Positions 1 through 35,174 of a DNA stretch of 64,000 bases are shown in pieces. The DNA is taken from NCBI GenBank assembly GCA_903844735.1, contig CAIMUX010000080.1, forward strand, positions 18,820 to 82,819, read 5' to 3'. A model generated the notes under the pieces. That model was not told the origin of the DNA, did no database searches, and saw only the letters and a list, made by a program, of their open reading frames with translations. Made by a program: the position numbers and the translations under genes. This DNA is from Candidatus Eiseniibacteriota bacterium (lineage in GTDB: Bacteria; Eisenbacteria; RBG-16-71-46; CAIMUX01). Position 1 is the first letter of the stretch, and the number at the start of each line of letters is the position of its first letter.

Positions 1-929
1 GTGGGCCAAGCCTGGCTCCGGGCGACGCGCTGCGAGTCCTGCGCGAGATCCGAGAGCGGTACGATCCCCGCACCATCACCGTGGCCCTATCCGGCGGAGA
101 ACCTCTGTGTTATCCGGAGCTCTTCTCGCTGGGACGCGCAATCACCGACCTCGAGTTCCCGTGGGGCATGGTGACCAACGGCTATGGCTGGACCCCCACC
201 AAGGTCTTGCAAGCCCGCGCTGCGGGGATGCAGTCGATTTCGGTCAGCCTTGACGGGCTTGAGGCGGAGCACGACTGGCTGCGCGGGCGCACCGGGTCAT
301 TCCGACGGGCGGTCGACGCCATTTCGATGTTGCTCCGCGATCCGTCCCGGCAGGCGATGGATGTCGTCACGTGCGTACACCCGCGCAATCTGCCTGTTCT
401 CGAGAAGCTGCAAGGACTCCTGCGGGCGCTGGGCGTGCGGGACTGGCGACTCTTCACTATTTCGCCGATCGGTCGGGCGGCGCGCGATCCCGAGCTTCTC
501 CTCGATCCGCCGCAGTTCCGGGAGCTTCTGGCGACAATCGAGCGCCTGCGGGACCGCGACGGCATCCACGTCAATTTCTCGGAATCCGGCTACCTGGGTC
601 CCCGGTACGAGTGCCGGGTGCGCGACACGGCCTACTTCTGCCGGGCCGGAATCACGGTTGCGGGAATCATGGCCAACGGCGACATCCTCGCCTGTCCCAA
701 CATCGATCGGAGCCTTCGGCAGGGAAACATCGCCGTCGACTCGTTTGTGGAAACCTGGGAGACGCGCTACCAGCCGTTTCGCGAGCGATCCTGGATGCGC
801 ACCGGCGACTGCGTGTCCTGTGGCGAGTGGTCGCACTGTCAGGGGAACTCACTCCACCTGTGGGATCCCGAGGCGCGTCGGACACGACTGTGCCACTACC
901 GGGCCTACGGGTTGCTCGAACAGGGATAA
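1..929 (+). CDS. radical SAM / SPASM-domain enzyme, 5' partial (anSME- or peptide-maturase-like)
   Basis: Reading frame is open to window position 1. Motifs ALSGGEPL, VSLDG..EHD..RG and a Cys-rich C-terminal SPASM-like segment (CPNID…CVSCGEWSHC). GTG at 81 is internal. Confidence 0.7.
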   Translation, partial: GPSLAPGDALRVLREIRERYDPRTITVALSGGEPLCYPELFSLGRAITDLEFPWGMVTNGYGWTPTKVLQARAAGMQSISVSLDGLEAEHDWLRGRTGSFRRAVDAISMLLRDPSRQAMDVVTCVHPRNLPVLEKLQGLLRALGVRDWRLFTISPIGRAARDPELLLDPPQFRELLATIERLRDRDGIHVNFSESGYLGPRYECRVRDTAYFCRAGITVAGIMANGDILACPNIDRSLRQGNIAVDSFVETWETRYQPFRERSWMRTGDCVSCGEWSHCQGNSLHLWDPEARRTRLCHYRAYGLLEQG

Positions 930-1090
930 GAGGCGGCGGCCCGCCCGTCGCTATCACGGCGGACATGGACTCATCCGAGGCCGACATGCGACACGCCGTA
1001 CGGTGATGGTTTCAGCAAGGAAGAACTGCATGCGCTGTTCACAGAGAGCGGGCTGGTGGGGGCGGACAGCTTCGTGTCTCCCGGATCCGG

Positions 1091-2110
1091 CTAGTCCGGC
1101 CGCCGCTCGACCGTCGGATTCCTGCCGGGCGTCCACGTCCGGCTGGCTCCGTTGGCCCACTCAGTACGCTGGCCACCGTCGCGATAGGTCGTTCGTTTGT
1201 CTCCGTTGGAGAAGAGGTAGGTTTCCGTCCCGTCGGCTTGGGTCGATCTTCGGTCGCCGCTCGGGTAGCTGACCTGCTCCGTGCCATCGGTCGCTTGGAC
1301 CACGCGGCTCCCGTCGGCGTATCGGATTTCTTCTCTACCATCGGGCCCCGTGATTCTCTCGTACCCATCCCGGGGCGCGGACCTGAACTTCCGCCTGCCG
1401 TCCGGATAGCGGACCTCCTGGGCGCCACTTTGGTAGGCGAGCTCGCGCCGGCCGTCGGGGAAGAATCGGTACTGTCCGTCGCGCGCTTCCCGCTGCACGA
1501 TCCGAGGGGGATACCAGGCGGCCTCGGCCTCCACGAGGCGGTAGTTGCTCGCGGAGTCGAAGATCTCGCGGTCTCCCCAGACCCAGAGGAACTCCCGCCT
1601 CCCATCGCGTGAAGAGACCACTCGGTCGCCCAGCGCCCCCACGTACACGAACGAGCCGTCCATGCGGCGATGGCCAAACGTGTACGGAACCCATAGACAC
1701 GTGTCGGGGCCACCGTTCCGCAGGATGGCGCTCCATCGCAAGAGGTCCGGCTCCCGGAACATGGCTGCCCGTTGCGTGGAGTCGTCGTCCTCCAGCAGTT
1801 TGAAGTCGAGGGTCTCATATCCCAAAGAGGCCCCCTTGCCGTAGATCCTGGTTACCAGATGAAACGTGTCGACGAAGTGAAACGAGCGGAGCGGGTCGGA
1901 GGGGAGCCCGCCGACATCGGCATAGTAGGTCTCGATGAAGGCGTGACGACCGCCTCGGCCGAGCCTTCCCCAACCGCAGTCCGGAGGCACGACACAGCCC
2001 ATCCGGCGCGCGGAGAGAGTCGGATGTTTGCGTTCATCCATCCACCGCTCTTGTTCCCCCCTCGCGCGGTCTCGCAATCTTGGTGCCTTGCCGGATCCGC
2101 CCGCTCCCAC
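1091..2110 (-). CDS. hypothetical protein with tandem ~11-aa Y-x-DG-type repeats
   Basis: Long ORF downstream of the KAS gene on the same strand. C-terminal half consists of reiterated 'YPDGRRE / YADGSR / YRDGGQ' units. True start probably near 2041 (MDERKH…). Confidence 0.45.
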   Translation of the reverse strand: MGAGGSGKAPRLRDRARGEQERWMDERKHPTLSARRMGCVVPPDCGWGRLGRGGRHAFIETYYADVGGLPSDPLRSFHFVDTFHLVTRIYGKGASLGYETLDFKLLEDDDSTQRAAMFREPDLLRWSAILRNGGPDTCLWVPYTFGHRRMDGSFVYVGALGDRVVSSRDGRREFLWVWGDREIFDSASNYRLVEAEAAWYPPRIVQREARDGQYRFFPDGRRELAYQSGAQEVRYPDGRRKFRSAPRDGYERITGPDGREEIRYADGSRVVQATDGTEQVSYPSGDRRSTQADGTETYLFSNGDKRTTYRDGGQRTEWANGASRTWTPGRNPTVERRPD

Positions 2111-2311
2111 TGGTTCTTGCGTCCGGCGAGGCGACCGTCAACCACGATCCCGCTCCCCGTCCCGGTCCCGACGAACAACCCAAAGACGACGCGTGATCAC
2201 GCGGCAGCGCCTTCCACCGTGCTTCTTGGGGGGGGTCTCCGAGAGGGCGGATCTGTCAAGTGAGGGTGTGATCCAAGCGCGTGAAACCATCGGCCTCGGC
2301 GGCTGAAAAGG

Positions 2312-3550
2312 TTACGCCCTCGAAAACAACAGGACGCTGTTCTGACCACCGAAGCCGAAAGAGTTGGACACGGCCGCTTTGACCTTCACCTTTCTGGCCT
2401 CGTTCGGAACAATGTCCAGATCGCAATCTGGATCCAATGCTTGGTAGTTGATCGTCGGCGGGAGAACGCCGTAGTAGATCGAAAGGACTGTGGCTGCCGC
2501 TTCAATCCCGCCGGCGGCCCCGAGCGTGTGGCCGATCATGGATTTGGTCGAACTGATCGGTATTTGATAGGCGCTGCTACCAAAACACCTCTTGATGGCA
2601 ATCGTTTCTGTTTTGTCGTTCACTCTTGTCGAGGTTCCGTGCGCATTGATATAGCCGATATCCGATCCTTTGACACCGGATCCATCGATGGCATTTTCTA
2701 TCGCTCGGGCGGCCCAGATTCCTTCCGGTTCTGGAATTGCGATGCTATAAGCGTCTGACGTCATGCCGAAACCCGACAGGACCGCCAGGGGCTCGGCACC
2801 GCGCTTTCTTGCGCTTTCGTACTTTTCCAGGACGAGCACGCCGGAACCTTCCCCAATTACGAAACCGTCCCTTCCGGCGTCGAAAGGTCTTGAAGCGGTT
2901 TCAGGGTCGTCATTCCTCGAGGTCAGCACCCCCATGCAAGCATACGCGTCTACGACCAACGGTGTGATCGTGGACTCCGAACCTCCGGCCAGCATGATGT
3001 CGGCCTGCCCCAGTCTGAGCATACCCATCGCGATGCCGATGGCATGAGAACCGGAGGAGCATGCGGTCGCGACGCCGATATTCGGGCCGTGGATTCCAAG
3101 ATCGATTGCGATATTCGCCGAAGACATATTGGGTATGATCTTGGGAACAGCAAACGGTTTGCAGAATCCCGGTCCTTTCTCTAAGAATACTTTGTGTTGG
3201 GACTCGATGTCCTCATAGTCTCCGGCGGCCGAACCTATGACACAACCGATCCGTGCCGAATTCTCTCTATCCAGTTGTATACCCGCGTCCGCTATTGCCT
3301 GAAAGGCCGCGCAAACCGCCAACTGGGAAAACCGCCCCATCCTGCCCGCCCTCTTGCCCGTCACATATTTCAGCGGGTCGAAGTTCTTGACTTCGGAAGC
3401 GACCTGGCATTTCTGCCCGGCTGGATCAAAGGCACGAATCGTGTCGGCACCGGAAACCCCGCTGGTCAGAGCTTCCCAGAACTCTTTCCGATTCTGGCCA
3501 ATAGAGGTATAGACACCGATTCCAGTAACAACAATGTCTTCCGGTTTCAT
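2312..3550 (-). CDS. fabF: 3-oxoacyl-ACP synthase II (KAS I/II family)
   Basis: Active-site Cys in ATACSSGSHAIG and the His-His pair (NAHGTSTRVND…MIGHTLGAAG) typical of FabF/FabB. C-terminal GFGGQNS. Gene is visibly lower in GC than its neighbours. Confidence 0.9.
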   Translation of the reverse strand: MKPEDIVVTGIGVYTSIGQNRKEFWEALTSGVSGADTIRAFDPAGQKCQVASEVKNFDPLKYVTGKRAGRMGRFSQLAVCAAFQAIADAGIQLDRENSARIGCVIGSAAGDYEDIESQHKVFLEKGPGFCKPFAVPKIIPNMSSANIAIDLGIHGPNIGVATACSSGSHAIGIAMGMLRLGQADIMLAGGSESTITPLVVDAYACMGVLTSRNDDPETASRPFDAGRDGFVIGEGSGVLVLEKYESARKRGAEPLAVLSGFGMTSDAYSIAIPEPEGIWAARAIENAIDGSGVKGSDIGYINAHGTSTRVNDKTETIAIKRCFGSSAYQIPISSTKSMIGHTLGAAGGIEAAATVLSIYYGVLPPTINYQALDPDCDLDIVPNEARKVKVKAAVSNSFGFGGQNSVLLFSRA

Positions 3551-3611
3551 GGTCTAATCATCCCCCGAGAATGACCCGGCATGTGCAGGACATGGTCGAA
3601 CTCTGCTCGCC

Positions 3612-4679
3612 TCACAACCACCTGTTCAGGCGGTACCAGTTCAGGGTCCCTTCGAGCCCGCGCGCCAAGGAATAGCGCGGGGCGAACCCCCACTCCCGAC
3701 GGGCCTTTTCCGGCAGACAGACCCAATGTGCCTGCCAGAGGTCCTCGACCTTGGCCCGGCTGAAGACGGCCGGGTTGCGGGCGATTGCCCCCCAGGCTTC
3801 CCCCAGGGAAGCTACCAACTTCGCCGCGAAGTGCGACACCCGTACCGTCCGCACCTGGGCCGCCATCAACTGGGCGGCCAGTTCACCCACCTCGTTCCAG
3901 GAGTACTCATCGCCGTCGGAGACGTAGTAGGTCCCGCGCGCACCGACCTCCGCGGCCTTGAGTGCTGCGTCGACTAAGTCCTCGACATGGATGAGGCTGA
4001 AACGCGTCGTCGTCCCGCGGGGCATCGGCAGGATGCCGTGGTGAATCCAGCGAAAGAGGACGATCAGCCCCTCGTCTCGCGGACCGTAGACGACAGGAGG
4101 GCGTAGAATGACGTATCGAAACCGGGTGTGAGCGTCGGCCACCTCTCGCAGCGCGATCTCCCCCTGTAGCTTGCTGCGTCCGTAGGGAGTCACCGGGGTC
4201 GGTGGATCGCCCTCGGTCCGCACGGGTGCGGGGTCGCGCTCCACTGGGATCCCCGGCCCCCCGGCCGCCATGCTGCTGCAATAGACGAAAAAGGCGCCCG
4301 GCACGGCGCGCTCGGCCACCGCCTCGGCGAGATTGCGCGTCCCCTGGGCGTTTGCCTCCATGAACTCGGAGGAACTGAGCGCCCGTGTCAGGCCACCGAA
4401 GTGGAAGACCCCGCGCACGCCCACGCAGGCCCCAGCCAGCGAAGCCTTGTCGCGGATGTCGCCATAGGCGTACTCGACCGGCTGCCCCTCCAACCATCGC
4501 AGGCTGCTGGACTTGCGGAGGAGGAGCCGCACCCGCCAGCCGCGTTGCACCAGCCTCTCCACGAGGTGCGAGCCGACGAAGCCGGTCCCGCCAGTGACGA
4601 GAACTCGCCCCGGCTTGGCGAAGAGGTCGTCCTGCTTGCCGGTGGCGCCCGGCGTGATGCGGGTATCCGGGATCGACAT
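3612..4679 (-). CDS. NAD(P)-dependent epimerase/dehydratase-fold protein (SDR extended family; CerR-like reductase candidate)
   Basis: N-terminal Rossmann motif VLVTGGTGFVGSHLV and catalytic YGRSK. Co-oriented and immediately downstream of the alpha-oxoamine synthase. Confidence 0.8.
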   Translation of the reverse strand: MSIPDTRITPGATGKQDDLFAKPGRVLVTGGTGFVGSHLVERLVQRGWRVRLLLRKSSSLRWLEGQPVEYAYGDIRDKASLAGACVGVRGVFHFGGLTRALSSSEFMEANAQGTRNLAEAVAERAVPGAFFVYCSSMAAGGPGIPVERDPAPVRTEGDPPTPVTPYGRSKLQGEIALREVADAHTRFRYVILRPPVVYGPRDEGLIVLFRWIHHGILPMPRGTTTRFSLIHVEDLVDAALKAAEVGARGTYYVSDGDEYSWNEVGELAAQLMAAQVRTVRVSHFAAKLVASLGEAWGAIARNPAVFSRAKVEDLWQAHWVCLPEKARREWGFAPRYSLARGLEGTLNWYRLNRWL

Positions 4680-4698
4680 GGTTCCCCCGGTTACCCGG

Positions 4699-5982
4699 TT
4701 AGATGAGGCCGACCTGACGACCTGCCCGGCCGAAGATCTCCAGGGCCTCGTCGATCAAAGCGGCGGTGTGTGTGGCCATGAGGCTGGTGCGAATGCGCGC
4801 GCTATTCTCCGGCACCGCAGGCGCGATCACCGGGTTGGTGAAGATTCCCATCTCGAAGAGAACCTTCCAAAAGAAGAAGGTGCGCACGTTGTCTCCCACG
4901 ATGATGGGGATGATAGGGGTAACAGAGAGCCCGGTATCGAATCCGAGCGATTGCAGCCCGGCCTTCAGCCGATCGGCGTTGCGCCACAACCGTTCCCGCC
5001 GGTCCGGCTCGCTCTTCAAGATGCGCAGGCACTCCCGCACCGTGGCCACCGCGTAGGGGGGCATGGAGGCGCTGAAGATCATGGTGCGGGCCATGTGCTT
5101 GATGTAGTGGATGACATTCTCGTCAGCCGCGGCCACCCCTCCGATGGAGGCGAACGACTTGCTGAACGTCCCCATCAGGAGGTCGGATTGAGGGGTCAGG
5201 CCGAAGTGCTCGTGCACACCCGCCCCGGTGGCGCCGATGACACCCATGGAGTGCGCTTCATCGATGAGGATGCGGCCCCCGAAACGGTGCACCAGAGGCA
5301 CAAGGTGCGGCAGGTCGGCCAGATCGCCCTCCATGCTGAAGATACCGTCGACGACAATGAGCAGGCCGGCGACCGGGTGCTCGCGCCGCGCCCGCTCCAG
5401 CACGCGTTCGAGGTGCGTCATGTCGTTGTGGTTGTACCGATACACCCTCGCCTGGGAAAGGATGGCGCCGTCGACGATGCAAGCGTGGTCAAGCTTGTCG
5501 ATGATGATGACATCGCCCCGTCCGGCCAGCGAGGAAATGATGCCGAGGTTGGTCTGGAAGCCGGTGGAGAAGACCAGGGCCGCCTCCTTCCCCAGGAAAC
5601 CGGCCAGCTCCGCCTCGAGCTTCTCGTGGATGTCGAGGGTGCCGTTGAGGAAGCGGCTCCCGGTGCACCCGGTGCCGTACCGGCGGGCCGCCTTTTGCGC
5701 CGCTTCCATCACCCTCGGGTCGTGCGTCAGTCCGAGGTAGTTGTTCGAGCCGAGCATGATCTTCCGCCGGCCCTCGACGTGGACCTCGGTTCCCTCCGAT
5801 CCCATGATGGGAACGAAGTAGGGATACAGCCCGGCCGCCTGGGCCTCGCGGGCCCGGGTGAAGCGGCGACACTTCTCGAAGAGATCTTCGGGGGCGGCGG
5901 TCGGATCGGGCACCACCTGCCCGCCCCTGGGCTGTCTGACTCCCATGCCTATCCCTTCTTTCTGGTTGAATCGTCGCGTCAT
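4699..5982 (-). CDS. alpha-oxoamine synthase family PLP enzyme (serine palmitoyltransferase / 8-amino-7-oxononanoate synthase-like)
   Basis: PLP-lysine region GTFSKSFASIGG and glycine-rich SNNYLGL motif. The ORF extends to 6126. Likely starts are ATG at 5982 (MTRRFNQ) or ATG near 5946 (MGVRQ, preceded by AAGGGA). Confidence 0.85.
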   Translation of the reverse strand: MTRRFNQKEGIGMGVRQPRGGQVVPDPTAAPEDLFEKCRRFTRAREAQAAGLYPYFVPIMGSEGTEVHVEGRRKIMLGSNNYLGLTHDPRVMEAAQKAARRYGTGCTGSRFLNGTLDIHEKLEAELAGFLGKEAALVFSTGFQTNLGIISSLAGRGDVIIIDKLDHACIVDGAILSQARVYRYNHNDMTHLERVLERARREHPVAGLLIVVDGIFSMEGDLADLPHLVPLVHRFGGRILIDEAHSMGVIGATGAGVHEHFGLTPQSDLLMGTFSKSFASIGGVAAADENVIHYIKHMARTMIFSASMPPYAVATVRECLRILKSEPDRRERLWRNADRLKAGLQSLGFDTGLSVTPIIPIIVGDNVRTFFFWKVLFEMGIFTNPVIAPAVPENSARIRTSLMATHTAALIDEALEIFGRAGRQVGLI

Positions 5983-6024
5983 GCTAGGGTCCGAGCCCCG
6001 GTGAGTCAAGGCTGCGCGGTCCGT

Positions 6025-9795: not shown

Positions 9796-11328
9796 ATGAT
9801 GGATCGTCCTCTTCACCGGCGCGAATTTCTCGGCGTCCTCGGGGGCGCCGCCGCGACCGGTGCCGTGTTCCTGTTGCCCGAACCGCTGGGCGACCTGTTT
9901 CGGCCGGGCAAGGCCGAGGCTGCCCTGCGCGGAATGTCGTTCCCCGTGAACGAGCCGATGGCCGGACGCATCCTGGCCGCTGCCCGCGCGCGGGGGGCGG
10001 ACTTTGCCGATCTGTACTGCGAGACGCGTGTCGTCACGCGGATCACCCTCGCCGACGGCCGCATCGAATCTTGCGAGCAGGGGGTCTACGCCGGCACCGG
10101 CGTGCGCGCGATGGACGACGACCGCACCGGCTACGCCTTCGCCGACTCGTTCGAGGAAGCGCCCCTCCTCTCGGCCGCGCGCGACGCGGCCGCCATCGCC
10201 TCCACGGGTGGCTGGGGGCGCTCCGCCTTCTCCTTCCGGCGCCCGTCACCCGGCTCCATCGTCCGAGTGCGGCGCCCGTTCGATGAGGTTTCGGTGGAGG
10301 AGCGGATTTCCTGGTTACGCCGCATCGATGCCACGGCCCGCGCCGCCGACCCGTCGATCCAGGTGGTGAACCTTGAATACAACGACGAGATGCAACGTTT
10401 CCTCGTGGCCACCACCGACGGCGCGTGGGCAGAGGACCTGCTGCCCAACATGTACCTTCGGATTAATGTGGTGGCGCTGAAGAACGGCCACCGCGGTCTG
10501 GGCAACGAAAGGATCAGCTTCCGAATGGGTGCGGAGCAGATGGACGGCGACGCCCCGGAGAGGGGAGCGCGCGAAGCGGCCCGGATGGCCATCGCGATGT
10601 GTGAGGCCGGCGACTCCCCGGCGGGTGAGATGCCCGTGGTTCTCGGCGCCGGCGGCGGAGTGCTGTTCCATGAGGCCGTAGGGCATGGGCTCGAGGCCGA
10701 CGCCGTCTGCCGCGGCACCTCCATGTTCGCGGGGAGGATCGGAGAGAAGGTCGCCTCCGATCGCGTGTCGGTCATCGATGCCGGCTCCCTGCCGAACCTG
10801 CGCGGTTCGTACAACTACGACGACGAGGGGCAGCCTCCACAGCGAAGCGTACTCATCGAGAACGGAATCCTGCGCGGCTTCATGAACGACCGCACGACAG
10901 CTCGACGGCTCAAGGTTCCGCGCACCGGCAACGGGCGGCGTCAGTCGTATCGTTTCCCACCGATCCCGCGGATGAGCAACACGTTCCTCGCCGAGGGTAC
11001 CGACACCGTGGAGGAGATCATCCAGAGCACCAGAAGTGGCATCTACGCACGCGTCCTGGGGGGCGGCGAGGTCGACACCACCACCGGCAACTTCACCTTC
11101 GGGATCCTCGAAGCCTACCGGATCGAGAGCGGAAAGGTGGGCGCTCCTGTGCGGGGCGCCACCCTGGTCGGCAACGGGCCGGAAACAATGAAGCGCATCG
11201 ACCGCGTGGCCGCGGACCAGAAGTTCTGGAACGGTACCTGCGGCAAGGGACAGTGGGTGCCCGTGACATCGGGCGCGCCGACGCTGCGCATTTCGGCGAT
11301 GACCGTGGGCGGCTCGGGACAAGCGTGA
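9796..11328 (+). CDS. tldD: TldD family metalloprotease with twin-arginine (Tat) signal
   Basis: RREFLGVLGGAAATGAV Tat motif after a GGAGGA RBS. Conserved HEAVGHGLE zinc motif. TldD/PmbA-family C-terminus. Confidence 0.85.
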   Translation: MMDRPLHRREFLGVLGGAAATGAVFLLPEPLGDLFRPGKAEAALRGMSFPVNEPMAGRILAAARARGADFADLYCETRVVTRITLADGRIESCEQGVYAGTGVRAMDDDRTGYAFADSFEEAPLLSAARDAAAIASTGGWGRSAFSFRRPSPGSIVRVRRPFDEVSVEERISWLRRIDATARAADPSIQVVNLEYNDEMQRFLVATTDGAWAEDLLPNMYLRINVVALKNGHRGLGNERISFRMGAEQMDGDAPERGAREAARMAIAMCEAGDSPAGEMPVVLGAGGGVLFHEAVGHGLEADAVCRGTSMFAGRIGEKVASDRVSVIDAGSLPNLRGSYNYDDEGQPPQRSVLIENGILRGFMNDRTTARRLKVPRTGNGRRQSYRFPPIPRMSNTFLAEGTDTVEEIIQSTRSGIYARVLGGGEVDTTTGNFTFGILEAYRIESGKVGAPVRGATLVGNGPETMKRIDRVAADQKFWNGTCGKGQWVPVTSGAPTLRISAMTVGGSGQA

Positions 11329-11338
11329 GGAGGATGCA

Positions 11339-12814
11339 ATGAGCGGACAGCACCAAACCTGGAAGCGCCCCCACGGTGACGCCGCCGATCCGAGAACGAC
11401 CGGCGCGCTTGCGGCGGATCGCACACGCGCGGACATCGGGGGCCGTGACCCTCAAGCAACTCTCAACGCCGCGCTTTCGGTCCTGCGGGCCCAGGGAGCG
11501 CAGGGGGATGCCTTTCTTGAAAGCCGCCGCACGCTCGACCTCCGCGTTCGCGACGGAAAGCAGGATTCCATCACCCGCTCCGAGGTCCGCGGCCTGGCTG
11601 TGCGGGCCATGATGAACGGCCAGCTCGGCTTCTGCCACACCGGCAAGGCGACCCCATCGGGGGCTGCGGAGGCCGCGCGGCAGGCTTGCGATCTCGCGCG
11701 GGCAGCCTCCCCGCGCGACGACCTCGTCCTCGCCGAACCGGCGGGACCGGGCGACGGCAGCGACGAGGGGTTGGCATTGCAGCGCTGCGACGATTCGCTC
11801 GACGCTATGTCGATCGAAGAGAAGCTCGATTTCATTCGCCGGTGTGAATCGGCCGGTCGCGGCTTCGATCCGAAGATCAAACGCACCGATGGAGCAAGCT
11901 GGAACGAGGGGCTGTCCGCCAACTGGACCGCCAACACCAGCGGGCTCTTCCGTCACTACCGCGCCAGCTTCCTCTCGGCAAACCTCGGAGTGATCGCCGA
12001 GGAGAAAGGTGAGATGCAGCCGGGAGAGGTCGGCTGGGAGGGTGTTCGGCGGGCCGACCTTCCTTCCCCCGACGTCCTGGGGCGACGCGCCGGCGAGCGC
12101 GCCGTGCGCCTCCTGGGCGGCGCCCCGGTGGCCACCGGCCGCTTCCCGATCATCTTCAGCCCCGAGGCCGGGTGGGCTCTTCTCGTGTACCTCGCGAGTG
12201 CACTGAACGGGAACAGTCTTGCGCAACGCCGGAGCTGGCTCTCATCCATGCTGGAAGGCGGCGCCCAGCCGATCATCGGAAGTTCCTTGGTGACCGTTCG
12301 GGACGCCGGCCGCCTGCCGCAGGGACCGGGCCGCGCTCCCTACGACGGCGAGGGGGTGGACACCCGCTCAAACGTCCTGCTCGATAAGGGCCGGGTGACG
12401 GGCGTACTGTGTGACCTCGCCTCAGCGAAGCGACTCGGTCGAATCTCCACCGGAAACGCCAACCGCAACGGCTATGAAGCTCTGCCCCAGATCGGCGCGC
12501 ACAACCTGTATCTCGAACCGGGAACAACCACCGCCGAGCAGGTCGTGGCCGGCGTCGAGCGTGGCCTCTGGGTCTGGGGCCTCACCGGCTGGTGGATCGG
12601 GCTCGACCCGGGCAATGACCAGTTCTCCAGTGCGGCCTTCGGGCTCTGGATCGAGAACGGAAAGCCGGTGCGCCCGGTATCGCGCGTCACCATCGCAGGC
12701 AAGCTGCCGGAGATCCTCGGCGCCGTGGACATGGTGGCCAACGACCTCACCTGGGACCACAGCACGAGGACACCAACCTTCCGCGTGAGGGAGATGGCGC
12801 TGTCAGGCACCTAG
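11339..12814 (+). CDS. pmbA: PmbA/TldE family protein (TldD partner)
   Basis: TldD/PmbA-family sequence immediately downstream of tldD (10-nt gap), same strand. Confidence 0.8.
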   Translation: MSGQHQTWKRPHGDAADPRTTGALAADRTRADIGGRDPQATLNAALSVLRAQGAQGDAFLESRRTLDLRVRDGKQDSITRSEVRGLAVRAMMNGQLGFCHTGKATPSGAAEAARQACDLARAASPRDDLVLAEPAGPGDGSDEGLALQRCDDSLDAMSIEEKLDFIRRCESAGRGFDPKIKRTDGASWNEGLSANWTANTSGLFRHYRASFLSANLGVIAEEKGEMQPGEVGWEGVRRADLPSPDVLGRRAGERAVRLLGGAPVATGRFPIIFSPEAGWALLVYLASALNGNSLAQRRSWLSSMLEGGAQPIIGSSLVTVRDAGRLPQGPGRAPYDGEGVDTRSNVLLDKGRVTGVLCDLASAKRLGRISTGNANRNGYEALPQIGAHNLYLEPGTTTAEQVVAGVERGLWVWGLTGWWIGLDPGNDQFSSAAFGLWIENGKPVRPVSRVTIAGKLPEILGAVDMVANDLTWDHSTRTPTFRVREMALSGT

Positions 12815-25178: not shown

Positions 25179-28100
25179 CTATCGCTTCACCCCCAACCGC
25201 ACCCCGCACCCCTTCTCGATTTCCAGCCCGGCATCCAGATCCGCCCCGTCGCACCCCTCGCGCAGCCCATGCGCCAGGGTCTCTTCGGCAATATACTTCC
25301 CAAAGGTCGAAATCACGGCCCGGACCCGTTCGTCGGCGGTGTCGTACAAGACCGTGATCCGGTCCTCAACGTTGTAACCGGCCTGCTTGCGCAGATCCTG
25401 CACCGCACGGATCATCTCGCGGGCGTACCCCTCGCGGAGCAGCTCCTCCGTGATAGCCGTGTCGATCACCACGAGAAGGTTCCGATCCCCGGCCACCGTG
25501 AGCCCGGCGCGCCCGGCGTACCGCAACTCGAACTCCCCTGGCACCAGCGTGTGACCGGCGATCTCGATGGTGCCCTCTTCGCTCTGCACCCACGCCCCGT
25601 CCTTCGCCGCTTTCGAGACATCTTTGATCGCGGCGCCAAGCTTGGTGCCCAGGACCGGGAAGTTGAGCTTCAGCTCGCGCGTGACCAAGGCTTCGGTGTC
25701 GCCACCCACCAGGACCTGCTTGATGTTCAACTCCTGGCCAACCTGAACGAGGAGATCGTCGTCGAGGTCGGGGGCGATGCCACCAAAGTCAAGAATCCAC
25801 ATCCGGCCCAGCGGCTGGCGAACCTTGATCTGCACCTTCTCGCGCGCGGCCCGGCCGAGGCTAACCGAGATGAGGACCCGCGCCATACGCGCGCTCAACG
25901 CTTCGTCCACGAGTTCCCGCCGCACCTCGGGATACGGCCGCAGGTGCACACTTTCGGGCCACCCGTCCGCATCTCCCGTCTCGCTGGTCCGCTCCGCCTC
26001 ACCCCGGGGGCTCGAGACCCTAGTCCCTGCCCTGGATCCCCCCCGAAGCGTCCCGGTCAGATTGCGGTAGATCTCCTCGGCCAGAAACGGCACCACCGGC
26101 GCCAACATCTCACTGAAGGTGACCAGCACATGAAAGAGCGTCCGGTACGCAAACTTCTTGTCCTCATCGGCGGTCGACTTCCAGAACCGACGGCGCGAGC
26201 GCCGGAGATACCAGGTGGAAAGCGCCTCCAGGAACGCGTCGGCGGCCCGCAGCGAGCCGGCCACGTCATATTCCTCCAGCCCCCGCGTGAAGATCTCCAG
26301 CGTCCGGTGAAGGTCGGAAAGGATCCAGCGGTCGAGCGGATTGGGGCTCTGCGAGAGCGTCTCCTCCACCTGCGCCTCCGCCGGATCGAACCCATCCAGC
26401 AGAGCATAGGTCACGAAGAATCCGTAGACGTTCCAGAGGGTGATGAGCCGGCGCCGGATGTCGTCAGCGGCGTGGTAACCGAAGCGAAGGTTGTTGTTCG
26501 GGTTGAAGGCGCAATAGAGCCAGCGCATGACGTCCGCGCCCATCTTCTCAACCGCCTCGGCCAACTCGAGGGCATTCCCCGCCGACTTGTGCATCGGCTT
26601 GCCCTTCTCGTCGAAGACCTTCTCATAGGAGAAGACGGCCTTGTACGGGGCGCGCCCTTCCAGCGTCACCGCGGTGAACATCATGGCGTAGAACCAGAGC
26701 CTCACCTGCTCGCGCATCTCCAGCACGAGCTCACAGGGGAACCATTTTTCCCAATAGGCCCGATCCTCGAAGTACTTCAGAGTGGAGAACCCGACGATCC
26801 CCGCGTCCAGCCAGCAATCGCCGACATCGAAGATGCGCTTCGCCTCGGCCCCACAGTGCACGCAGCGGATCCGCACTTCGTCGATCCAGGGCCGGTGCAA
26901 CTCGGGCAGTCCGTCCACGACGGCCGGGTCGAGGGCGCGCGCGCGCAGTTCGGCGCGGCTCTTGATCACGGTGAGGTGTCGCTGTGGACAAAAGTAGAAC
27001 GGCAGGGGCAGTCCCCAGTAGCGCTTCCGGGAGATGCACCAGTCTCCCATGTTGTTGTACCAGTCCTGGGTTCGCTTTCCCACCGACTCGGGGATCCAGC
27101 GCACGGTCTCCGCCGCCGCCTTCATCTGCGGACGGATCTCCGTCGAGGAAAGGAACCACTCATTCTCGACGCGAAAGACCAACTTCTCCTTGCAGCGCCA
27201 GCAGAACGGGTAGCGGTGCCGGTAGGTTTCCTGCCGGAACAGGACATCCTTCTCCTTTAGGCTGGCCAGGATCGGCTTCTCCACGTCGTGGACATCCATG
27301 CCCGTCAGCCAGCCGAAACCCTCCACGTAGAGTCCATAGCCGTCGAGCGGGGCGATGACCTTCAGCCCGTGTGTCTTTCCCAGTTCGTTGTCCTCGGCGC
27401 CGCACCCGGGTGCGATGTGGACGATTCCCGATCCGTCGGTTTCGCCGACCGCACTCCACGGGACAACGCGGTGGTCCATTCCTGCCGCCACCGGCAATTC
27501 GTCGAATGGGCCGTCGTAGGCCCAACCCACCATCTCGCTTCCCTTCAGCGTGCCCTGTTCCTCGGCTCCCCTCTTGAAGATCATCGGGTAGGTGCCGGCG
27601 CTGAGATAGTAGACGTGCCCTTCGTGGCGCACCCGCAGGTAGTCGAGATCGGGGTTGACCGCCGCCGCCACATTGCTGGTCAGCGTCCATGGCGTCGTCG
27701 TCCACACCAGAAGAGACTCCCCCGGCCGGTCCTTCAAGGGGAAGCGTAGAAAGACAGAGGTGTCGGCCACTTCCTCGTAGCCATCGGTCAGCTCGTGCTG
27801 GGAAAGCGAGGTCCCGCAGCGGGTGCACCATGGCATCGCCTGGTGCCCCTCGTACAACCAGCCCCTCTCGTGGCAGATCCCGAGAAAGTGCCAGATGTAC
27901 TCGATGTTGGTGTCGCTCATCGTGTAATAAGAGTCGTCCCAGCGCATCCACTGGCCGAGACGGAGCGATTGCCGGATCATGACGCTGCTATACTTGTCCA
28001 CGCGGGCACGGCAGGCGCGGGAAAACTTATCCAGGCCGTACTGCTCAATGTCCCGCTTGCTGTTGAAGCCGAGCTCCCGCTCCGTCTCCACCTCAAGCCA

Positions 28101-28379
28101 CAGGCCCTGGCAGTCGAATCCGTTCTGCCAGCGCTGGTCGAACCCGCGCATTGCCCTGTATCGCTGGAAGACGTCCTTGTAGGTGCGGCCCCAGGCGTGG
28201 TGCACACCCATCGGATTATTCGCCGTGATCGGCCCGTCGATAAACGACCAGGGTGCCCGTCCGGCATTGCGTTGCACCTGTTGCTCGAAGATGCGCCCAG
28301 ACCGCCAGAATTCGAGGATGCGGTGCTCCAACTCGATGAAGTCCTGCTTGGCGTTAACCGGGGCGAACGCTGGCTCCAC
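25179..28379 (-). CDS. ileS: isoleucine–tRNA ligase (type 2)
   Basis: HIGH-region variant ANNPMGVHHAWGRT, KMSKS (KMHKSAGN) and overall class-I IleS architecture (1066 aa). Confidence 0.95.
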   Translation of the reverse strand: MEPAFAPVNAKQDFIELEHRILEFWRSGRIFEQQVQRNAGRAPWSFIDGPITANNPMGVHHAWGRTYKDVFQRYRAMRGFDQRWQNGFDCQGLWLEVETERELGFNSKRDIEQYGLDKFSRACRARVDKYSSVMIRQSLRLGQWMRWDDSYYTMSDTNIEYIWHFLGICHERGWLYEGHQAMPWCTRCGTSLSQHELTDGYEEVADTSVFLRFPLKDRPGESLLVWTTTPWTLTSNVAAAVNPDLDYLRVRHEGHVYYLSAGTYPMIFKRGAEEQGTLKGSEMVGWAYDGPFDELPVAAGMDHRVVPWSAVGETDGSGIVHIAPGCGAEDNELGKTHGLKVIAPLDGYGLYVEGFGWLTGMDVHDVEKPILASLKEKDVLFRQETYRHRYPFCWRCKEKLVFRVENEWFLSSTEIRPQMKAAAETVRWIPESVGKRTQDWYNNMGDWCISRKRYWGLPLPFYFCPQRHLTVIKSRAELRARALDPAVVDGLPELHRPWIDEVRIRCVHCGAEAKRIFDVGDCWLDAGIVGFSTLKYFEDRAYWEKWFPCELVLEMREQVRLWFYAMMFTAVTLEGRAPYKAVFSYEKVFDEKGKPMHKSAGNALELAEAVEKMGADVMRWLYCAFNPNNNLRFGYHAADDIRRRLITLWNVYGFFVTYALLDGFDPAEAQVEETLSQSPNPLDRWILSDLHRTLEIFTRGLEEYDVAGSLRAADAFLEALSTWYLRRSRRRFWKSTADEDKKFAYRTLFHVLVTFSEMLAPVVPFLAEEIYRNLTGTLRGGSRAGTRVSSPRGEAERTSETGDADGWPESVHLRPYPEVRRELVDEALSARMARVLISVSLGRAAREKVQIKVRQPLGRMWILDFGGIAPDLDDDLLVQVGQELNIKQVLVGGDTEALVTRELKLNFPVLGTKLGAAIKDVSKAAKDGAWVQSEEGTIEIAGHTLVPGEFELRYAGRAGLTVAGDRNLLVVIDTAITEELLREGYAREMIRAVQDLRKQAGYNVEDRITVLYDTADERVRAVISTFGKYIAEETLAHGLREGCDGADLDAGLEIEKGCGVRLGVKR

Positions 28380-28544
28380 TCTGTTACTCCTCTAGACTCA
28401 GGCTCCGCTCGTGCGCTTCCTCGGGATCGCCCTCGGCCTGATCCTCGTCGGCGGTCAGGATCTGTCGCCCTTGCCTAGTCCTGGTTGCTCGACTTGGTCC
28501 TTGGTCTTCCGGCCGGGGCACTCTCCCCGACATCGTAATCAGGT

Positions 28545-31261
28545 CTAGTCGCCGCCCTCGCCGTCGTCTTCGGATTCGTCTTCGAACTCGTCCGCGGATT
28601 CCTCATCCTCGCTCTCGTCGTCCGCCGACTCGTCCCCGTCGTCCCCCTCGGCCTCTTCTTCTCCGAGCTCGGCGTCCTCGATCTCCGGCGGCTCCCCGGC
28701 AGGCCGCTCCTCGTCGCGCTCCGCGCTCGCATCCGCACCACCCGCGACGACACCCGCCGGAGGCGCCTCGCCGGCCTCCGCCGCGGGACCGACGCCCGGC
28801 ACCTCCTGCGGCAGGCGCGTCACGTCCCGGACATAGTCGTCGTCGCCGAGCTGGATCAGCTTGACCCCTTGCGTGGCCCGGCTCAGCACCGACACGGTGT
28901 TGATCTTGAGCCGGATGATGATCCCACCGGAGCTCATCACCATGAGCTCATCGGAGTCGGTAACAACAAGCAGAGCCACGATCGGACCGTTGCGCTCGGA
29001 CGCGCGGATGGTAAGCACCCCTTGCCCGCCCCGGCGGGTCACGCGGTACTCCTCGATCTGGCTGCGCTTGCCGAATCCCCGGTGCGTCACGACCAACAGG
29101 TGTTCCGCCGGGTCCCGCACCGCCACCATGCCGATCGCGGCGTCCTCGGGACCCTGGAGCCGCACGCCACGCACGCCCGCCGCGGAGCGGCCCATGGGGC
29201 GGACGTCGATCTCGGGAAAGCGAATGGCCCGGCCGCGCCGGGTGGCAATGATTACTTCCCAGCCCGGCTCAAGTTGTCGGGCGCCGATCAGCGCGTCTCC
29301 TTCCTTCAGCTCAAGGGCCACAATCCCTTTTCGCCGCGGGTGGCTGAAGCGGGAAAGGCGGATCTTCTTGATCAGTCCCCGCTGCGTGGCCAGCATCAGA
29401 AAGCGGTCCTCGCGGAACTCGCGCACCGGCAGGTAGGCCGTGATCCGCTCTTCCCTCTGCGCCCCAATGAGATTGAGGAGGGATCGCCCCTTCGCTGTCC
29501 GCCCGCCCTCCGGAATCTCGTGGACCTTCAGCCAGTAGGCCCGCCCTCGATCGGTGAACAGCAGCAGGTACGTGTGCGTCGAGGCGACAAAGAGGTGTTC
29601 GACGAAGTCGTCCTCCTTGGTCGTCGCGCCCCGCAGGCCCCGGCCCCCTCGCCCCTGGCTCCGGTACTCATTCACCCGCGTCCGCCGGATGTAGCCAGCG
29701 TGCGTGATGGTGATGATCATCTCCTCCTCAGGGATCAGGTCTTCGATGTCGAACCCCGCCTCCCCCTCAAGGATGCCGATCTCTGTCCGGCGGGCGTCCC
29801 CGAAACGCTCCTTCAGCGCCAGCATGTCGCCGCGGATCAGACCCAGCACGCGGCCTCGGTCGGCGAGAATCTCCCGCAGTTCGGCGATGCGCGCCACGAC
29901 CTGGGCATACTCCTGGTCGATCTTCTTCCGCTCGAGGCCGGTCAGCCGTTGCAGCCGCATCTCGAGAATCGCCTCGGCCTGCTTCTCAGAGAGGCCGAAC
30001 GTCCGCTGCAGTCCCTGCCGCGCCGCCTCCGGGTCGGGGCTGTGGCGGATCAGGGTGATCACGGCATCCAACTCGTCCAGCGCCCGGCGCAGCCCCTCGA
30101 GAATGTGAGCCCGCGCCTCCGCCTGGGCCAGCTCGAAACGACTTCGCCGGACGATCACCTCGAGTCGATGGTCGAGGAACGCCTGCAGCATTCCCCGCAG
30201 GCCGAAGACCACGGGCCGATTGTCCTTCAAGGCCAGGAGGTTTGCCCCGAACGTTGTCTGCATCTGGGTGTGTTTGTATAGTTGGTTCAGGACCACCCGC
30301 GGCTGGGCGTCTCGCCTCAACTCGATGACCACCCGCATGCCGCGCCGATCCGACTCGTCGCGGAGGTCGGAGATGCCGGTGATTTGTCCCGCCTTCACCA
30401 GACCGGCGATCTTCTCGATCATCGCCGCCTTGTTCACCTGATACGGAATCTCGGTGACGATGATGGCGTCCTTGCCGTTCTTTAGGGTATCGATCTCGGC
30501 CCGCGCACGCACAACAATGAGCCCCCGTCCGGTGGAGTAGGCGTCGCGAACTCCCTGCCGCCCGAGGATGATCCCTCCGGTCGGAAAGTCGGGGCCCGGC
30601 AGGAACCGCATCAGCTCCTCTACCGTGGCCTCGGGGGTGTCAATGAGGTGGACGAGGGCGTCAATCGTCTCACCCAGGTTGTGCGGCGGGATATTGGTCG
30701 CCATCCCGACGGCAATGCCTGTGGCTCCATTCACGAGAAGGTTAGGAAAGTTCGCGGGCAGGACAACCGGTTCCTCTCGCGTCTCGTCATAGTTGGGCCG
30801 GAAGTCGACGGTTTCCTTCTCCAGGTCGAGAAGCAACTCCTCCGCCACCGGATTCATGCGCGCCTCTGTGTAGCGCTCGGCCGCGGCGGCGTCGCCGTCC
30901 ACCGAACCGAAGTTACCCTGGCCTTCGATGAGCGGGTAGCGCAGCGAGAAGTCCTGGACCAGTCGCACCATGGTGTCGTAGACCGTGACGGTTCCGTGCG
31001 GGTGGTAATTGCCGGTGACGTCTCCGGTGATCTTGGCCGATTTCCGGTATGGTCGGTCGTGATAGAGAGAGAGATCGTTCATGGCGACGAGGATCCGGCG
31101 CTGCACCGGCTTCAGTCCGTCGCGAACATCGGGCAGCGCCCGGGAAACGATGACGCTCATCGAGTAGTCGATGTACGAAGACTTCATCTCGTCCTCGATG
31201 AGCACCGGGAGGATCCTCCCCGCGGGCCTGTCTGCTCCGGGCTTGTCCATATCCTCACTCA

Positions 31262-31262
<1 letters not shown>
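28545..31262 (-). CDS. gyrA: DNA gyrase subunit A
   Basis: Active-site region [11 protein letters not shown] and [11 protein letters not shown]. Acidic C-terminal tail. Start ATG overlaps the gyrB stop (ATGA). Confidence 0.95.
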
Positions 31263-33178
<1,916 letters not shown>

Positions 33179-33469
33179 TCATGGTTCCGGGTTCGGGGTG
33201 AACCGGATGCTGTCGATGGTGCTGCCGGGTGCAACCTCCCTCAGTCGCTCCAGCATCTTCGGTATAAGAAAGGAGAGGTGGTGCTGCAGCACCGCGTTCT
33301 CCACATACACCCAGAGGGTTCTCCCCTGGACCCGCAGCGGCTGCGTGCTCGCGGCCAGCGACTCGCCCACAACCTCGCGCCAGCGGGGAAAGGCGCGGTA
33401 GTTCCTCACCCCGGTCTCAAGGTCTCTGCCGCGCAGTACGGCCTGGAGGATTCCCGAAATGTGGTCCAT
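33179..33469 (-). CDS. DUF721 (DciA-like) protein
   Basis: Small ORF between dnaN and gyrB with DUF721-like sequence (…WREVVGESLAAST.P.RVQGRTLWVYVENAVL). Confidence 0.65.
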   Translation of the reverse strand: MDHISGILQAVLRGRDLETGVRNYRAFPRWREVVGESLAASTQPLRVQGRTLWVYVENAVLQHHLSFLIPKMLERLREVAPGSTIDSIRFTPNPEP

Positions 33470-33488
33470 GCCCGGCACGGGTGCCGAC

Positions 33489-34634
33489 TCAATTCGCCGC
33501 GACCGTCTCGCCGCCACGGGCGGGCTCGTCCTGCAGTCGCAGGGGCATGACGAGACAGAGCAGGTCCGGCTTGCCCTCGAGCGGGGTTGGCTCGAAGATG
33601 CTGGCTGCTCCCGACTCCTTGAAAGAGATCCGCACGCGGTCGGTCGTCATGGTTTTGAGCAAATCGAGGAGATAACCCCCGTTGAACCCGGTGCGGAATT
33701 GTGGCCCCTCGTAGTCGGCCGACACCGCCTCACTGGCCTCCCCGACATCATGCGCTTCGGCGGCCAGGCCCAGTCGGCCTGAATCGATGGTGACCTTCAC
33801 CATCCGGGTGGCTGACTCACTGAAAACTGTGACCCTCCGCAGAGCTGCCGCCAGAACCTCGCGGTCAAGATCCGCATGACTGTCGCATCCGCTCGGGATC
33901 GCCTGCTGATAGGGCGGGAACGGGCCATCCAGGAGGCGCGTGTACAGCCTCGTGCTACCCAAGTTGAACAGACAGTATCGCTTGTTCGCGGAAATCGATA
34001 CGGATTCCTGGGCCTCTGACAACAGCCGTTGCAAGACGGCCAGCGTCTTGGTCGGAACCAGAACATCGGCCCATGCCGGGTAGTCTGCGGCGTGAAATGC
34101 CATGGCCAGGCGATGGCCGTTCGTCGCTACGAACCGGAGATCGCCGCCAACCACATGCACAAAGACGGCAGTCTGCTCGGGTCGAGTGTAATCCGTACTT
34201 GCGGCATAGGCCGTCTGGGCGACCAATCGGGCAAGAACCGAACTGGAGACGGCGAAGATCTTCTCTTCATTCAGCTCCGGCAGGGGTGGAAATTCCTGCG
34301 GATCGGGTCCCACAATCCTAAAACGTCCGTTGCCACAATGAATGCTGATACCGCTGGCTGTGGATGAAATCTCGACGACGTCTCCGGGCAATTCCCGCAC
34401 TACCTCGAGAAGTCTCCGAGCGGGTATGGCGGCAATCCCTGGTTGCTCCACCGACGCGTGCAAGGAAGTGACGAGGAAGGCGTCGAGATCCGTCCCGGTG
34501 AACCTGAGCTCGCCGTTTTCGGTCGCTTCCACCAAGATCGAGGTCAGGTGCTGCGCCGCAGTCTTCGTGGGCACAACACCCGCGACCAACTGCAGACTCC
34601 TGTACAGCTCACTCTGAACCAGCGAGAACTTCAT
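33489..34634 (-). CDS. dnaN: DNA polymerase III beta sliding clamp
   Basis: MKFSLVQSEL… three-domain beta-clamp sequence. Start taken at the ATG at 34634. Confidence 0.9.
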   Translation of the reverse strand: MKFSLVQSELYRSLQLVAGVVPTKTAAQHLTSILVEATENGELRFTGTDLDAFLVTSLHASVEQPGIAAIPARRLLEVVRELPGDVVEISSTASGISIHCGNGRFRIVGPDPQEFPPLPELNEEKIFAVSSSVLARLVAQTAYAASTDYTRPEQTAVFVHVVGGDLRFVATNGHRLAMAFHAADYPAWADVLVPTKTLAVLQRLLSEAQESVSISANKRYCLFNLGSTRLYTRLLDGPFPPYQQAIPSGCDSHADLDREVLAAALRRVTVFSESATRMVKVTIDSGRLGLAAEAHDVGEASEAVSADYEGPQFRTGFNGGYLLDLLKTMTTDRVRISFKESGAASIFEPTPLEGKPDLLCLVMPLRLQDEPARGGETVAAN

Positions 34635-34849
34635 GACCCCTCCCGGCACCATGCAGGCGCACCCTTCGGCAATCATCACCCGGACCGCAATCCTCACGGC
34701 CCAGGGTCCTGCCCCTGATTTCTTTCTTCCGCAACCCGAAGACACCGTCCCGGAGACACCGGGGATGCGACTGGGAGGACTCTCCGACGCTGGCGCGTCG
34801 GTGGTCCCAGAGAGCACGTTCGGTGCTCGCCTAGAATAGGAAAGACCCT

Positions 34850-35170: not shown

Positions 35171-35174
35171 AGGA

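Follow-up and report, generated by a model that had tools for sequence, protein, structure and literature searches.

We describe a group of three genes near the left end of a 64,000-nt stretch of the Candidatus Eiseniibacteriota contig CAIMUX010000080.1 (hereafter the window; overall GC ~65%). With a probability that we put at about 60%, they form a truncated and remodelled sphingolipid operon whose predicted product is a sphingoid base. The genes are closely packed open reading frames (ORFs) on the minus strand, separated by gaps of 19 bp and 61 bp. They encode an alpha-oxoamine synthase (AOS) resembling serine palmitoyltransferase (Spt), a short-chain dehydrogenase/reductase (SDR) resembling the ceramide reductase CerR, and a FabF-type beta-ketoacyl-acyl carrier protein (ACP) synthase II (KAS II, below KAS). 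In related genomes a GNAT-family gene resembling that of the bacterial ceramide synthase, bCerS, stands between the first two; in the window this gene has been lost by deletion, and a scar marks its place. The genes for head-group tailoring are gone as well, a KAS of foreign composition has been added, and the genes that were kept are under selection. It is this combination that is novel in the window, the pathway itself being known. The features of the locus and its flank are as follows.

4699..5946, minus strand: Spt-like AOS, 415 aa (427 aa from an upstream ATG at 5982)
3612..4679, minus strand: CerR-like extended SDR with an NAD-epimerase fold, 355 aa, motifs GGTGFVG and YGRSK
2312..3550, minus strand: FabF-type KAS II, 412 aa, of foreign composition
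4638..4679, minus strand: deletion scar at the 5' end of the SDR gene, from blastn and a junction alignment against the related locus L181
6010..6127, no strand: upstream junction of ~118 bp, where the related loci L181 and L008 have ~4.1 kb with genes for a PMT/ArnT-like glycosyltransferase and an Asn-synthase-like amidotransferase (blastn block edges against L181)
5981..6009, minus strand: weakly supported promoter-like site ahead of the AOS start at 5946, TTGACT-17-TAGCAT; 1 site against 0.8 expected by chance
2190..2203, minus strand: terminator-like hairpin ~110 bp past the KAS stop; weak, 4 sites in the region against 3.4 expected by chance
1091..2110, minus strand: Tcp10_C-repeat protein (PF07202, 64 bits), called from 2041 with 316 aa (range 316-339 aa)
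1..929, plus strand: radical SAM/SPASM protein (TIGR04133, 308 bits), its 5' end cut by the window edge

An earlier note on this DNA, made from the letters alone, had read the ORFs at 4699-5982, 3612-4679 and 2312-3550 as an AOS, an epimerase-fold protein and a FabF-type condensing enzyme. The three ORFs are confirmed, all on the minus strand, and Pfam and NCBIfam searches uphold their families. For the AOS, most homologues and the ENA/Logan gene calls use the start at 5946; JGI calls the one at 5982. The arrangement is not an assembly artefact, because it recurs in independent data: the AOS-SDR-KAS order, whole or in part, is found at 100% amino acid identity on contigs from six or more assemblies or samples that are independent of each other (L001-L005, L011), four of which span the AOS-SDR-KAS or SDR-KAS junctions, and AOS, SDR and KAS stand in a row in L174 too, a relative at 91-92% identity.

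Identity of the synthase and the reductase

Among the NCBIfam models, the AOS scored highest against SerpalmtaseCFB (NF047600; 522.5 bits), ahead of bioF (388 bits), Kbl (368 bits), HemA (244 bits) and a CqsA-type model (216 bits), and its bioF and Kbl scores were under those models' own cutoffs. Solved structures gave a similar ranking. The best match was the SPT of S. multivorum (3a2b/8guh), at 433 bits over residues 22-409 with ~51-55% identity (~51% when the alignment is trimmed), followed by the Sphingomonas SPT (293 bits), the Kbl enzymes of Thermus and E. coli (253-275 bits), CapB (28eh; 228 bits), BioF (226 bits) and the SulA-like 7u7h (217 bits). The S. multivorum enzyme comes from a different phylum, and its motif regions are all conserved in the window AOS, whose substrate is predicted. 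The protein matches Pfam Aminotran_1_2 (PF00155, 199 bits) and contains the motifs GSNNYLGL, DHACIVDG, DEAHS, GTFSKS and PAVP..IRTS. We take these to correspond, by S. paucimobilis residue numbers, to the lysine that binds pyridoxal phosphate in its T-F-S-K-S context and to the conserved His/Asp/His and Arg residues.

HemA and CqsA were compared by scores. For the other families, a neighbour-joining tree of 55 sequences with 200 bootstraps placed the AOS in a clade with the S. multivorum SPT and with sequences from Rhabdobacter (Bacteroidota), Nitrospirota, Elusimicrobiota and Chloroflexota (87% bootstrap). This clade joined the clade of proteobacterial and sphingomonad Spt, to the exclusion of E. 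coli BioF and Kbl, at 90.5%. Two bacterial Spt subgroups were already known (PMC9386255), and the two clades of our tree recover them. By these comparisons, the AOS is an Spt-like enzyme of the Bacteroidota/delta-proteobacterial subgroup. Its surroundings agree: no bio or tdh genes lie near it, and the orthologues in relatives stand between an Asn-synthase-like amidotransferase gene (AsnS) and a bCerS-like GNAT. The earlier note had preferred Spt to BioF for lack of other bio genes and had suggested a phylogeny as the check; the score rankings and the tree both bear it out.

We also compared the AOS with its clade at the 121 positions where conservation within the clade reaches 90% or more. 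It keeps 120 of them, and the only change, E315D, is conservative, so that neofunctionalisation of the AOS following bCerS loss, which we considered, is not supported. The AOS of L174 has Ile at the position equivalent to residue 97 of the window AOS, where Ser is invariant in the Spt clade (GSRFLNG); this may be a real change or, as the contig has low coverage, an error of sequencing. Separately, a gammaproteobacterial metagenome-assembled genome (L063, 8001-11351) carries an AOS followed directly by a bCerS-like GNAT and a CerR-like SDR. In the tree this AOS falls outside both Spt clades, with AOS of Legionella, Streptomyces and cyanobacteria, and may represent a third Spt-like lineage or a tree artefact.

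The SDR matches the Pfam families Epimerase and 3Beta_HSD, and reaches only 142 bits against HpnA, for which the cutoff is 368. Its Rossmann motif GGTGFVG lies at residue 30 and its catalytic YGRSK at residue 166. A profile built from 14 alpha- and gammaproteobacterial SDRs that adjoin spt matched it at 219.8 bits (E 2e-66), all other ORFs of the window scoring at most 21 bits, and it is 83-87% identical to the SDRs of canonical clusters in relatives (L181 87%, L008 83%). On this evidence the SDR belongs to the CerR-like reductase family, as the earlier note had proposed for its epimerase-fold protein. The labels CerR and bCerS, as we use them, are based on proteobacterial orthologues defined by synteny, rather than on direct comparison with the characterised Caulobacter sequences. 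In Caulobacter, spt is CC_1162, acpR CC_1163, cerR CC_1164 and cerS CC_1154, with lptF2/G2 between (PMC11324152). The Sphingomicrobium locus L035 reads SDR, a short gap, Spt, LptF/G-like genes and GNAT, and since this layout mirrors the Caulobacter synteny, we equate the sphingomonad SDR with CerR.

To see how widely these families travel together, we fetched 80 loci with the AOS as query and sought partners within 8 kb of the Spt-like gene. At 27 non-Eisenbacterial loci among the 80, a homologue of the SDR and a homologue of the ~380-aa GNAT were both present, mostly adjacent; these loci span Nitrospirota, Elusimicrobiota, Bacteroidota, Chloroflexota, Alpha- and Gammaproteobacteria and others. 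The SDR family stands next to spt in at least seven phyla, sphingomonads included. Neither partner was found at 33 of the 80, which are mainly from Planctomycetota and cyanobacteria, with AOS outside the Spt clades, together with three short contigs and one Erythrobacter locus.

Magnetotactic Nitrospirota (L022-L025) have an SDR-Spt pair with no bCerS-like GNAT in the flanks fetched (at most 8 kb per side; shorter in L022 and L024, where the contig ends). In one of them, Ca. Magnetobacterium casense (L023, 387-9224), genes for a methyltransferase, a FabG-like protein, an ACP, a KAS and a flippase are grouped at a distance of 2-7 kb, upstream of the SDR-Spt pair. We considered the KAS near SDR-Spt in L023 and L025 as a possible link between KAS and Spt and rejected it, because scpB, on the opposite strand, lies between and the KAS belongs to the ACP-KAS-FabG-flippase group.

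Deletion of the bCerS-like gene and probable gain of a foreign KAS

Six distinct Eisenbacterial clusters (L006, L008 = L012, L009, L010, L013 and L181) contain Spt, a GNAT of 382-446 aa and an SDR, with AOS 69-90% identical to that of the window. In five of the six the SDR is followed by PAP2_3, the exception being L181. Against a profile of 17 proteobacterial GNATs linked to spt, those of L181 and L008 (the two scored) reached 340-355 bits, which identifies them as bCerS-like. In these two loci, whose AOS are the closest among canonical relatives (90% and 88% identity), the gene order is PmbA/TldD, a Rax2-like large protein, a PMT/ArnT-like glycosyltransferase (PMT), AsnS, Spt, GNAT and SDR. 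The window has the same PmbA/TldD-Rax2 flank, from which it follows that the three loci are orthologous; PMT, AsnS, GNAT and PAP2 are missing from the window locus. The canonical Eisenbacterial cluster of Spt, bCerS and CerR (with PAP2, AsnS and PMT) has the makings of a complete candidate sphingolipid operon and fits the known pathway.

The canonical clusters extend over 6108-14662 in L006, 3764-12620 in L008 and 4705-12207 in L181, in all three with PMT and AsnS upstream of Spt. The PAP2_3 proteins of L006 and L008 match the Bacteroides phosphoinositol dihydroceramide synthase faintly (NF052609, 25 bits), and the presence of PMT, AsnS and PAP2_3 around canonical Spt clusters hints at a complex phospho- or glyco-sphingolipid. 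As to the host, homologues of the AOS and GNAT at 50-72% identity are from Candidatus Eisenbacteria by NCBI name, and a neighbouring 1,206-aa protein has a borderline C-terminal match to the sorting domain of the type IX secretion system, which fits the FCB superphylum. A scan of a genome collection with the AOS, using exact peptide patterns, recovered two Eisenbacterial species.

The alignment of the window with L181 shows where the GNAT gene was removed. By blastn, positions 8676-10042 of L181 correspond to 6010-4638 of the window, and 11155-12211 to 4662-3608. The first ~10 codons of the window SDR, MSIPDTRITP, are the start of the bCerS-like GNAT (MPIPDVRITP in L181), so that the start codon and ~10 codons derived from the GNAT are joined in frame to codon ~9 of the SDR (GATGKQDD). 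In L174, whose AOS, SDR and KAS are 91%, 92% and 92% identical to those of the window, the remnant is different: a ten-codon ORF, MPIPDVDMVP*, made of the first and last codons of the GNAT, precedes the native GTG start of the SDR. Either the two scars arose as independent events, or one derives from the other via two further small deletions.

No replacement for the lost gene was found close by. A tblastn search with the GNAT of L006 gave no bCerS-like match in the window. With the 17-GNAT profile (E<=1), neither the window and ~7 kb of left flank (from L011), together ~71 kb around the locus, nor L174 yielded a bCerS-like ORF. A GxDS motif scan of the window found no ACP gene, and the window contains no dedicated AcpR/AasR and no acpP or fab genes. 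The earlier note had called the locus a candidate for ceramide synthesis and had proposed to look for a bCerS-type acyltransferase and a dedicated ACP. The Spt-like and CerR-like enzymes are indeed there; neither of the two sought proteins was found in the range searched, and with bCerS deleted the locus is incomplete for ceramide.

Despite the deletion, the remaining genes show no sign of decay. Between the window and L174, both without the GNAT, dN/dS is 0.136 for the AOS, 0.139 for the SDR and 0.099 for the KAS, at dS of 0.32-0.40; comparisons among canonical genomes give 0.10-0.13. Purifying selection thus acts on all three genes, and because the values match those of the canonical genomes we regard the genes as functional.

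The third gene probably differs from the other two in origin. The KAS scores 529.5 bits against fabF TIGR03150, above the cutoff of 493.75, and when it is aligned with E. coli FabF (b1095; 44% identity), residues Cys164, His304, His341, Lys336 and Phe400 are intact; it thus shares with that enzyme its fold, the Cys-His-His set, the Lys and the Phe. Its GC content of 55.4% and third-position GC (GC3) of 0.63 compare with means of 65.4% and 0.80 in 22 other genes of the window (z = -4.4 and -4.9). Orthologues of the KAS follow the SDR in L174 (GC 57%) and L175 (GC 53%). In L175 a 256-aa methyltransferase (575-1345), absent from the window and L174, lies between SDR and KAS, so that a 46%-GC methyltransferase gene and a 53%-GC KAS gene stand behind a 65.5%-GC SDR gene. 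The methyltransferase scores 237 bits against the mycobacterial phthiotriol/phenolphthiotriol dimycocerosate methyltransferase and 225 bits against the fatty-acid O-methyltransferase Mtf2. Direct repeats around it, sought as a sign of excision, were not convincing.

The nearest named relatives of the KAS (62-68% identity) are from Chloroflexota and Spirochaetota, with no named Eisenbacteria among them. Together with the foreign composition, this points to horizontal gain, probably before the lineages of the window, L174 and L175 split; in L175 the methyltransferase would have come with the KAS. Between the window and L175, dS is 0.78 for the KAS and 0.44 for the SDR, and the higher value fits continuing adjustment of the KAS to the composition of the host genome. 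Four further homologues, 68-76% identical (P0123-P0126), are on contigs of 51-61% GC where these were fetched, a metagenome scan with the KAS gave a best match of 65% and no close relatives, and metagenome FabFs linked to acpP are only 44-52% identical to it. In all 120 of its best homologues (P0121-P0240, 62-92% identity) the motif DA(Y/H/F)(S/N/G)(I/V)A(I/L)P replaces the canonical DAYHMT(A/S)P. The KAS and these homologues appear to make up a separate subfamily of FabF that many Chloroflexota and Spirochaetota have and whose genes mostly lie away from acpP. Compared with housekeeping FabF, then, the window KAS stands in an spt operon, apart from acpP and fab genes, deviates in composition and belongs to a subfamily whose motif is DAY(S/N)IA(I/L)P instead of DAYHMT(A/S)P. 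The earlier note had remarked that the extra KAS is not part of described ceramide loci, and our literature search likewise found no described ceramide locus containing FabF. The note also took the KAS as a hint of an unusual supply of acyl chains; the gene itself encodes an ordinary, intact FabF of foreign origin, for which such a role would be conjectural.

In an unrelated organism of ~51% GC (L092, 3-6082), the genes run in the order HAE3/MMPL-type transporter, opposite-strand PIN-like gene, AOS, KAS (75% identical to ours) and 313-aa methyltransferase. That AOS is divergent and has 446 aa, a best model match to bioF (266 bits) and 32% identity to the window Spt, and the locus may be a separate amino-lipid cassette. 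It gave us the idea of a KAS clade dedicated to AOS partners. The idea is weakened by the contexts of other homologues, namely FabK-like-KAS-PNP in L183 (~76% identity), helicase-KAS-PEPCK in L096 and KAS-FabK-like-GNAT in L094, and we keep it as a lead only.

Proposed pathway and alternatives

We propose that an ancestral operon with the order PMT, AsnS, Spt, bCerS-like GNAT and CerR-like SDR, and in most cases a PAP2 phosphotransferase, would have been truncated and remodelled in the lineage of the window, L174 and L175. The bCerS-like gene was excised, leaving its start codon fused to the window SDR; the tailoring genes PMT, AsnS and PAP2 are absent; and a foreign, lower-GC, FabF-type KAS II would have been inserted after the SDR, in L175 alongside a lipid O-methyltransferase-like gene. 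In the pathway that we infer, the Spt-like enzyme would make 3-ketosphinganine from L-serine and a long-chain acyl thioester, either acyl-ACP or acyl-CoA; the NAD(P)H-dependent SDR would then reduce the 3-keto group to yield a sphinganine-type long-chain base. No space for a signal peptide is left before the Rossmann fold of the SDR, which is therefore presumably cytoplasmic. The presumably co-transcribed FabF would elongate acyl-ACP and may set the supply of the acyl donor or its chain length, while N-acylation to ceramide would need an unlinked enzyme. That the sublineage went so far as to turn a ceramide operon into one for long-chain bases only, by losing the ceramide synthase and head-group genes, keeping Spt and reductase and capturing a foreign FabF, is a tentative suggestion that we hold to be possible but rather doubtful.

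The Caulobacter system (Stankeviciute et al. 2022; Olea-Ozuna et al.) is the natural reference. The window shares with it an adjoining Spt-like AOS and CerR-family SDR, and close relatives of the window have Spt, bCerS and CerR in one operon. The window differs in that bCerS is deleted, AcpR/AasR are absent and a FabF is appended, and its Spt is of the Bacteroidota/delta-proteobacterial rather than the rhodobacterial subgroup (PMC9386255). A periplasmic location has been reported for the CerR of Caulobacter (PMC11087976), in contrast to the window SDR with its lack of space for a signal peptide.

Several points weigh against a sphingoid-base operon. The AOS score is below the NF047600 equivalog cutoff (522.5 against 640 bits). 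Genetics and localisation in Caulobacter place CerR after bCerS, on the N-acylated keto intermediate (PMC11087976), and a CerR-type reductase acting on free 3-ketosphinganine would be an unproven activity. As the genome is incomplete, a second copy of bCerS could sit elsewhere. The coupling of KAS to Spt is suggested by adjacency alone, with the ~76% homologue of L183 in a housekeeping-like FabK-FabF-PNP context, and the KAS sits at a breakpoint of synteny.

The strongest alternative is that ceramide synthesis is still complete, through an unlinked bCerS (duplicate or non-orthologous) and head-group enzymes elsewhere in the genome, with the FabF a horizontally acquired, housekeeping-type neighbour that has no role in the pathway. 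Spt, bCerS and CerR need not be clustered, for example in Bacteroidota and Cloacimonadota (PMC11334938), the SDR-Spt pairs of the Nitrospirota L022-L025 likewise have no GNAT in the flanks fetched, KAS homologues at 60-76% identity occur in unrelated or housekeeping-like contexts, and the KAS itself stands where synteny breaks. On the other hand, the ancestral copy of bCerS was deleted here, with remnants that differ in two sister lineages; PMT and AsnS (deleted at the locus) and PAP2 (not found) have gone with it, which argues for truncation rather than relocation; and the ~71 kb around the locus hold no bCerS-like ORF. As for the FabF, three diverged genomes (window, L174 and L175) retain the SDR-KAS pair, and in the two where the AOS could be looked for it is present too; purifying selection acts on the KAS. 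We judge this alternative unlikely, though it deserves serious consideration.

Far less probable is that the AOS is no Spt at all, but a BioF or Kbl, a cysteate acyltransferase (CapB/SulA) for sulfonolipids or a CqsA-type enzyme. The shortfall against the Spt cutoff and the JGI label of the homologues, '8-amino-7-oxononanoate synthase', could be taken in its favour. However, canonical Eisenbacterial orthologues that stand next to bCerS and CerR score alike (526.5 bits, again under 640), so the shortfall reflects the distance of the phylum and not this variant. The sub-cutoff bioF and Kbl scores, well under the Spt score, the exclusion of E. coli BioF and Kbl from the Spt clade, the GTFSKS lysine motif with the conserved residues of the clade, and the position of relatives' orthologues between AsnS and GNAT all speak against it. 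The capnine/sulfonolipid pathway (CapB/SulA and CapC) does resemble the window in having an AOS and then an NAD(P)H reductase to make an amino-alcohol lipid base, but the window AOS is much nearer to the S. multivorum SPT than to CapB or SulA (433 against 228 and 217 bits), and the window has no cysteate synthase.

Equally improbable is a decaying remnant without present function after loss of the ceramide pathway: four ancestral cluster genes are gone, but the three ORFs are intact with their catalytic residues, and dN/dS between GNAT-less lineages (0.10-0.14) matches that of the canonical genomes.

A sphingoid-base operon in this lineage would bear on two questions. Whether reduction comes before or after N-acylation in bacterial ceramide synthesis is disputed (PMC11324152 and PMC11087976), and a lineage in which Spt and reductase remain selected after bCerS loss is a direct test case for the order of steps. 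If the genome truly lacks bCerS, it would be a natural experiment indicating direct action of a CerR-family reductase on 3-ketosphinganine; and if the operon does serve long-chain bases only, free or O-methylated sphingoid bases would be the end products. The second question is that of distribution. A metagenome survey (Ding et al., ISME J 2024, PMC11334938) predicted Spt-like clusters in ~40 phyla of bacteria, and the canonical Eisenbacterial operons fit the clusters of that survey, with an Spt-like clade and co-localised bCerS and CerR. The survey attributes missing bCerS or CerR to rearrangement or poor assembly, whereas here the loss is seen as a deletion scar at an orthologous locus. It does not name Eisenbacteria in its main text or in two of its supplementary files, and our literature search found no work tying Eisenbacteria to sphingolipid synthesis, the sole co-mention being an unrelated sheep-gut study. 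The canonical operons would thus put a complete candidate sphingolipid cluster in Candidatus Eisenbacteria, an uncultured phylum of soil and sediment, and the window adds a caution for metagenome surveys, namely that an Spt-like gene alone is no guarantee of a ceramide pathway.

Neighbouring genes and other features of the window

Directly downstream of the KAS and on the same strand is the Tcp10_C-repeat gene, 201 bp or more away (~270 bp from its called start at 2041). Its protein has repeats of the form YPDGRR.., YADGSR.. and YPSGDR... In the relatives fetched with flanks the gene does not stand beside sphingolipid genes, the contigs of L174 and L175, which end at the KAS, being uninformative in this respect, and it is probably outside the lipid pathway.

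The radical SAM/SPASM gene had been described in the earlier note as divergent from and beside the operon, and as suggesting a step of lipid modification. Both statements have to be revised. The gene, on the plus strand and ending at 929, is convergent, lying tail-to-tail with the minus-strand Tcp10_C-repeat gene, which separates it from the KAS. Its TIGR04133 score of 308 bits is below the cutoff of 425 because the copy in the window lacks its 5' end. Just outside the window and upstream of it (L011, 7800-8219) is a gene for a 139-aa TIGR04134 radical SAM-associated putative lipoprotein (53.8 bits, above the cutoff of 39.8). The TIGR04133 and TIGR04134 genes are a conserved two-gene module, unrelated to the lipid operon; with this partner, the orientation and the intervening gene, we ruled out the radical SAM gene as a member of the locus.

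The window as a whole has no Rfam matches, and so no sign of a riboswitch or other RNA, and no tRNAs. It includes the neighbourhood of the chromosomal replication origin at 25179-41907, with ileS (25179-28379), gyrA (28545-31262), gyrB (31262-33172) and dnaA (35175-36557) on the minus strand and yidC (38025-39728) and gidB/rsmG (41134-41907) on the plus strand; the cumulative GC skew has its minimum at ~32-34 kb. A cassette led by a DUF6754 gene occurs twice, at 50382-53932 and 61327-64000. The DUF6754 proteins have 471 and 454 aa and are followed by small proteins of ~204, 275 and 223 aa in one copy and of 208 and 213+ aa in the other; the three small-protein genes of the first cassette, the copy that was scanned, have no Pfam match. 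Two large proteins, at 45592-47448 and 55723-58566, have C-terminal FGE-sulfatase (SUMF1-like) domains, and one of them also has CarboxypepD_reg domains.

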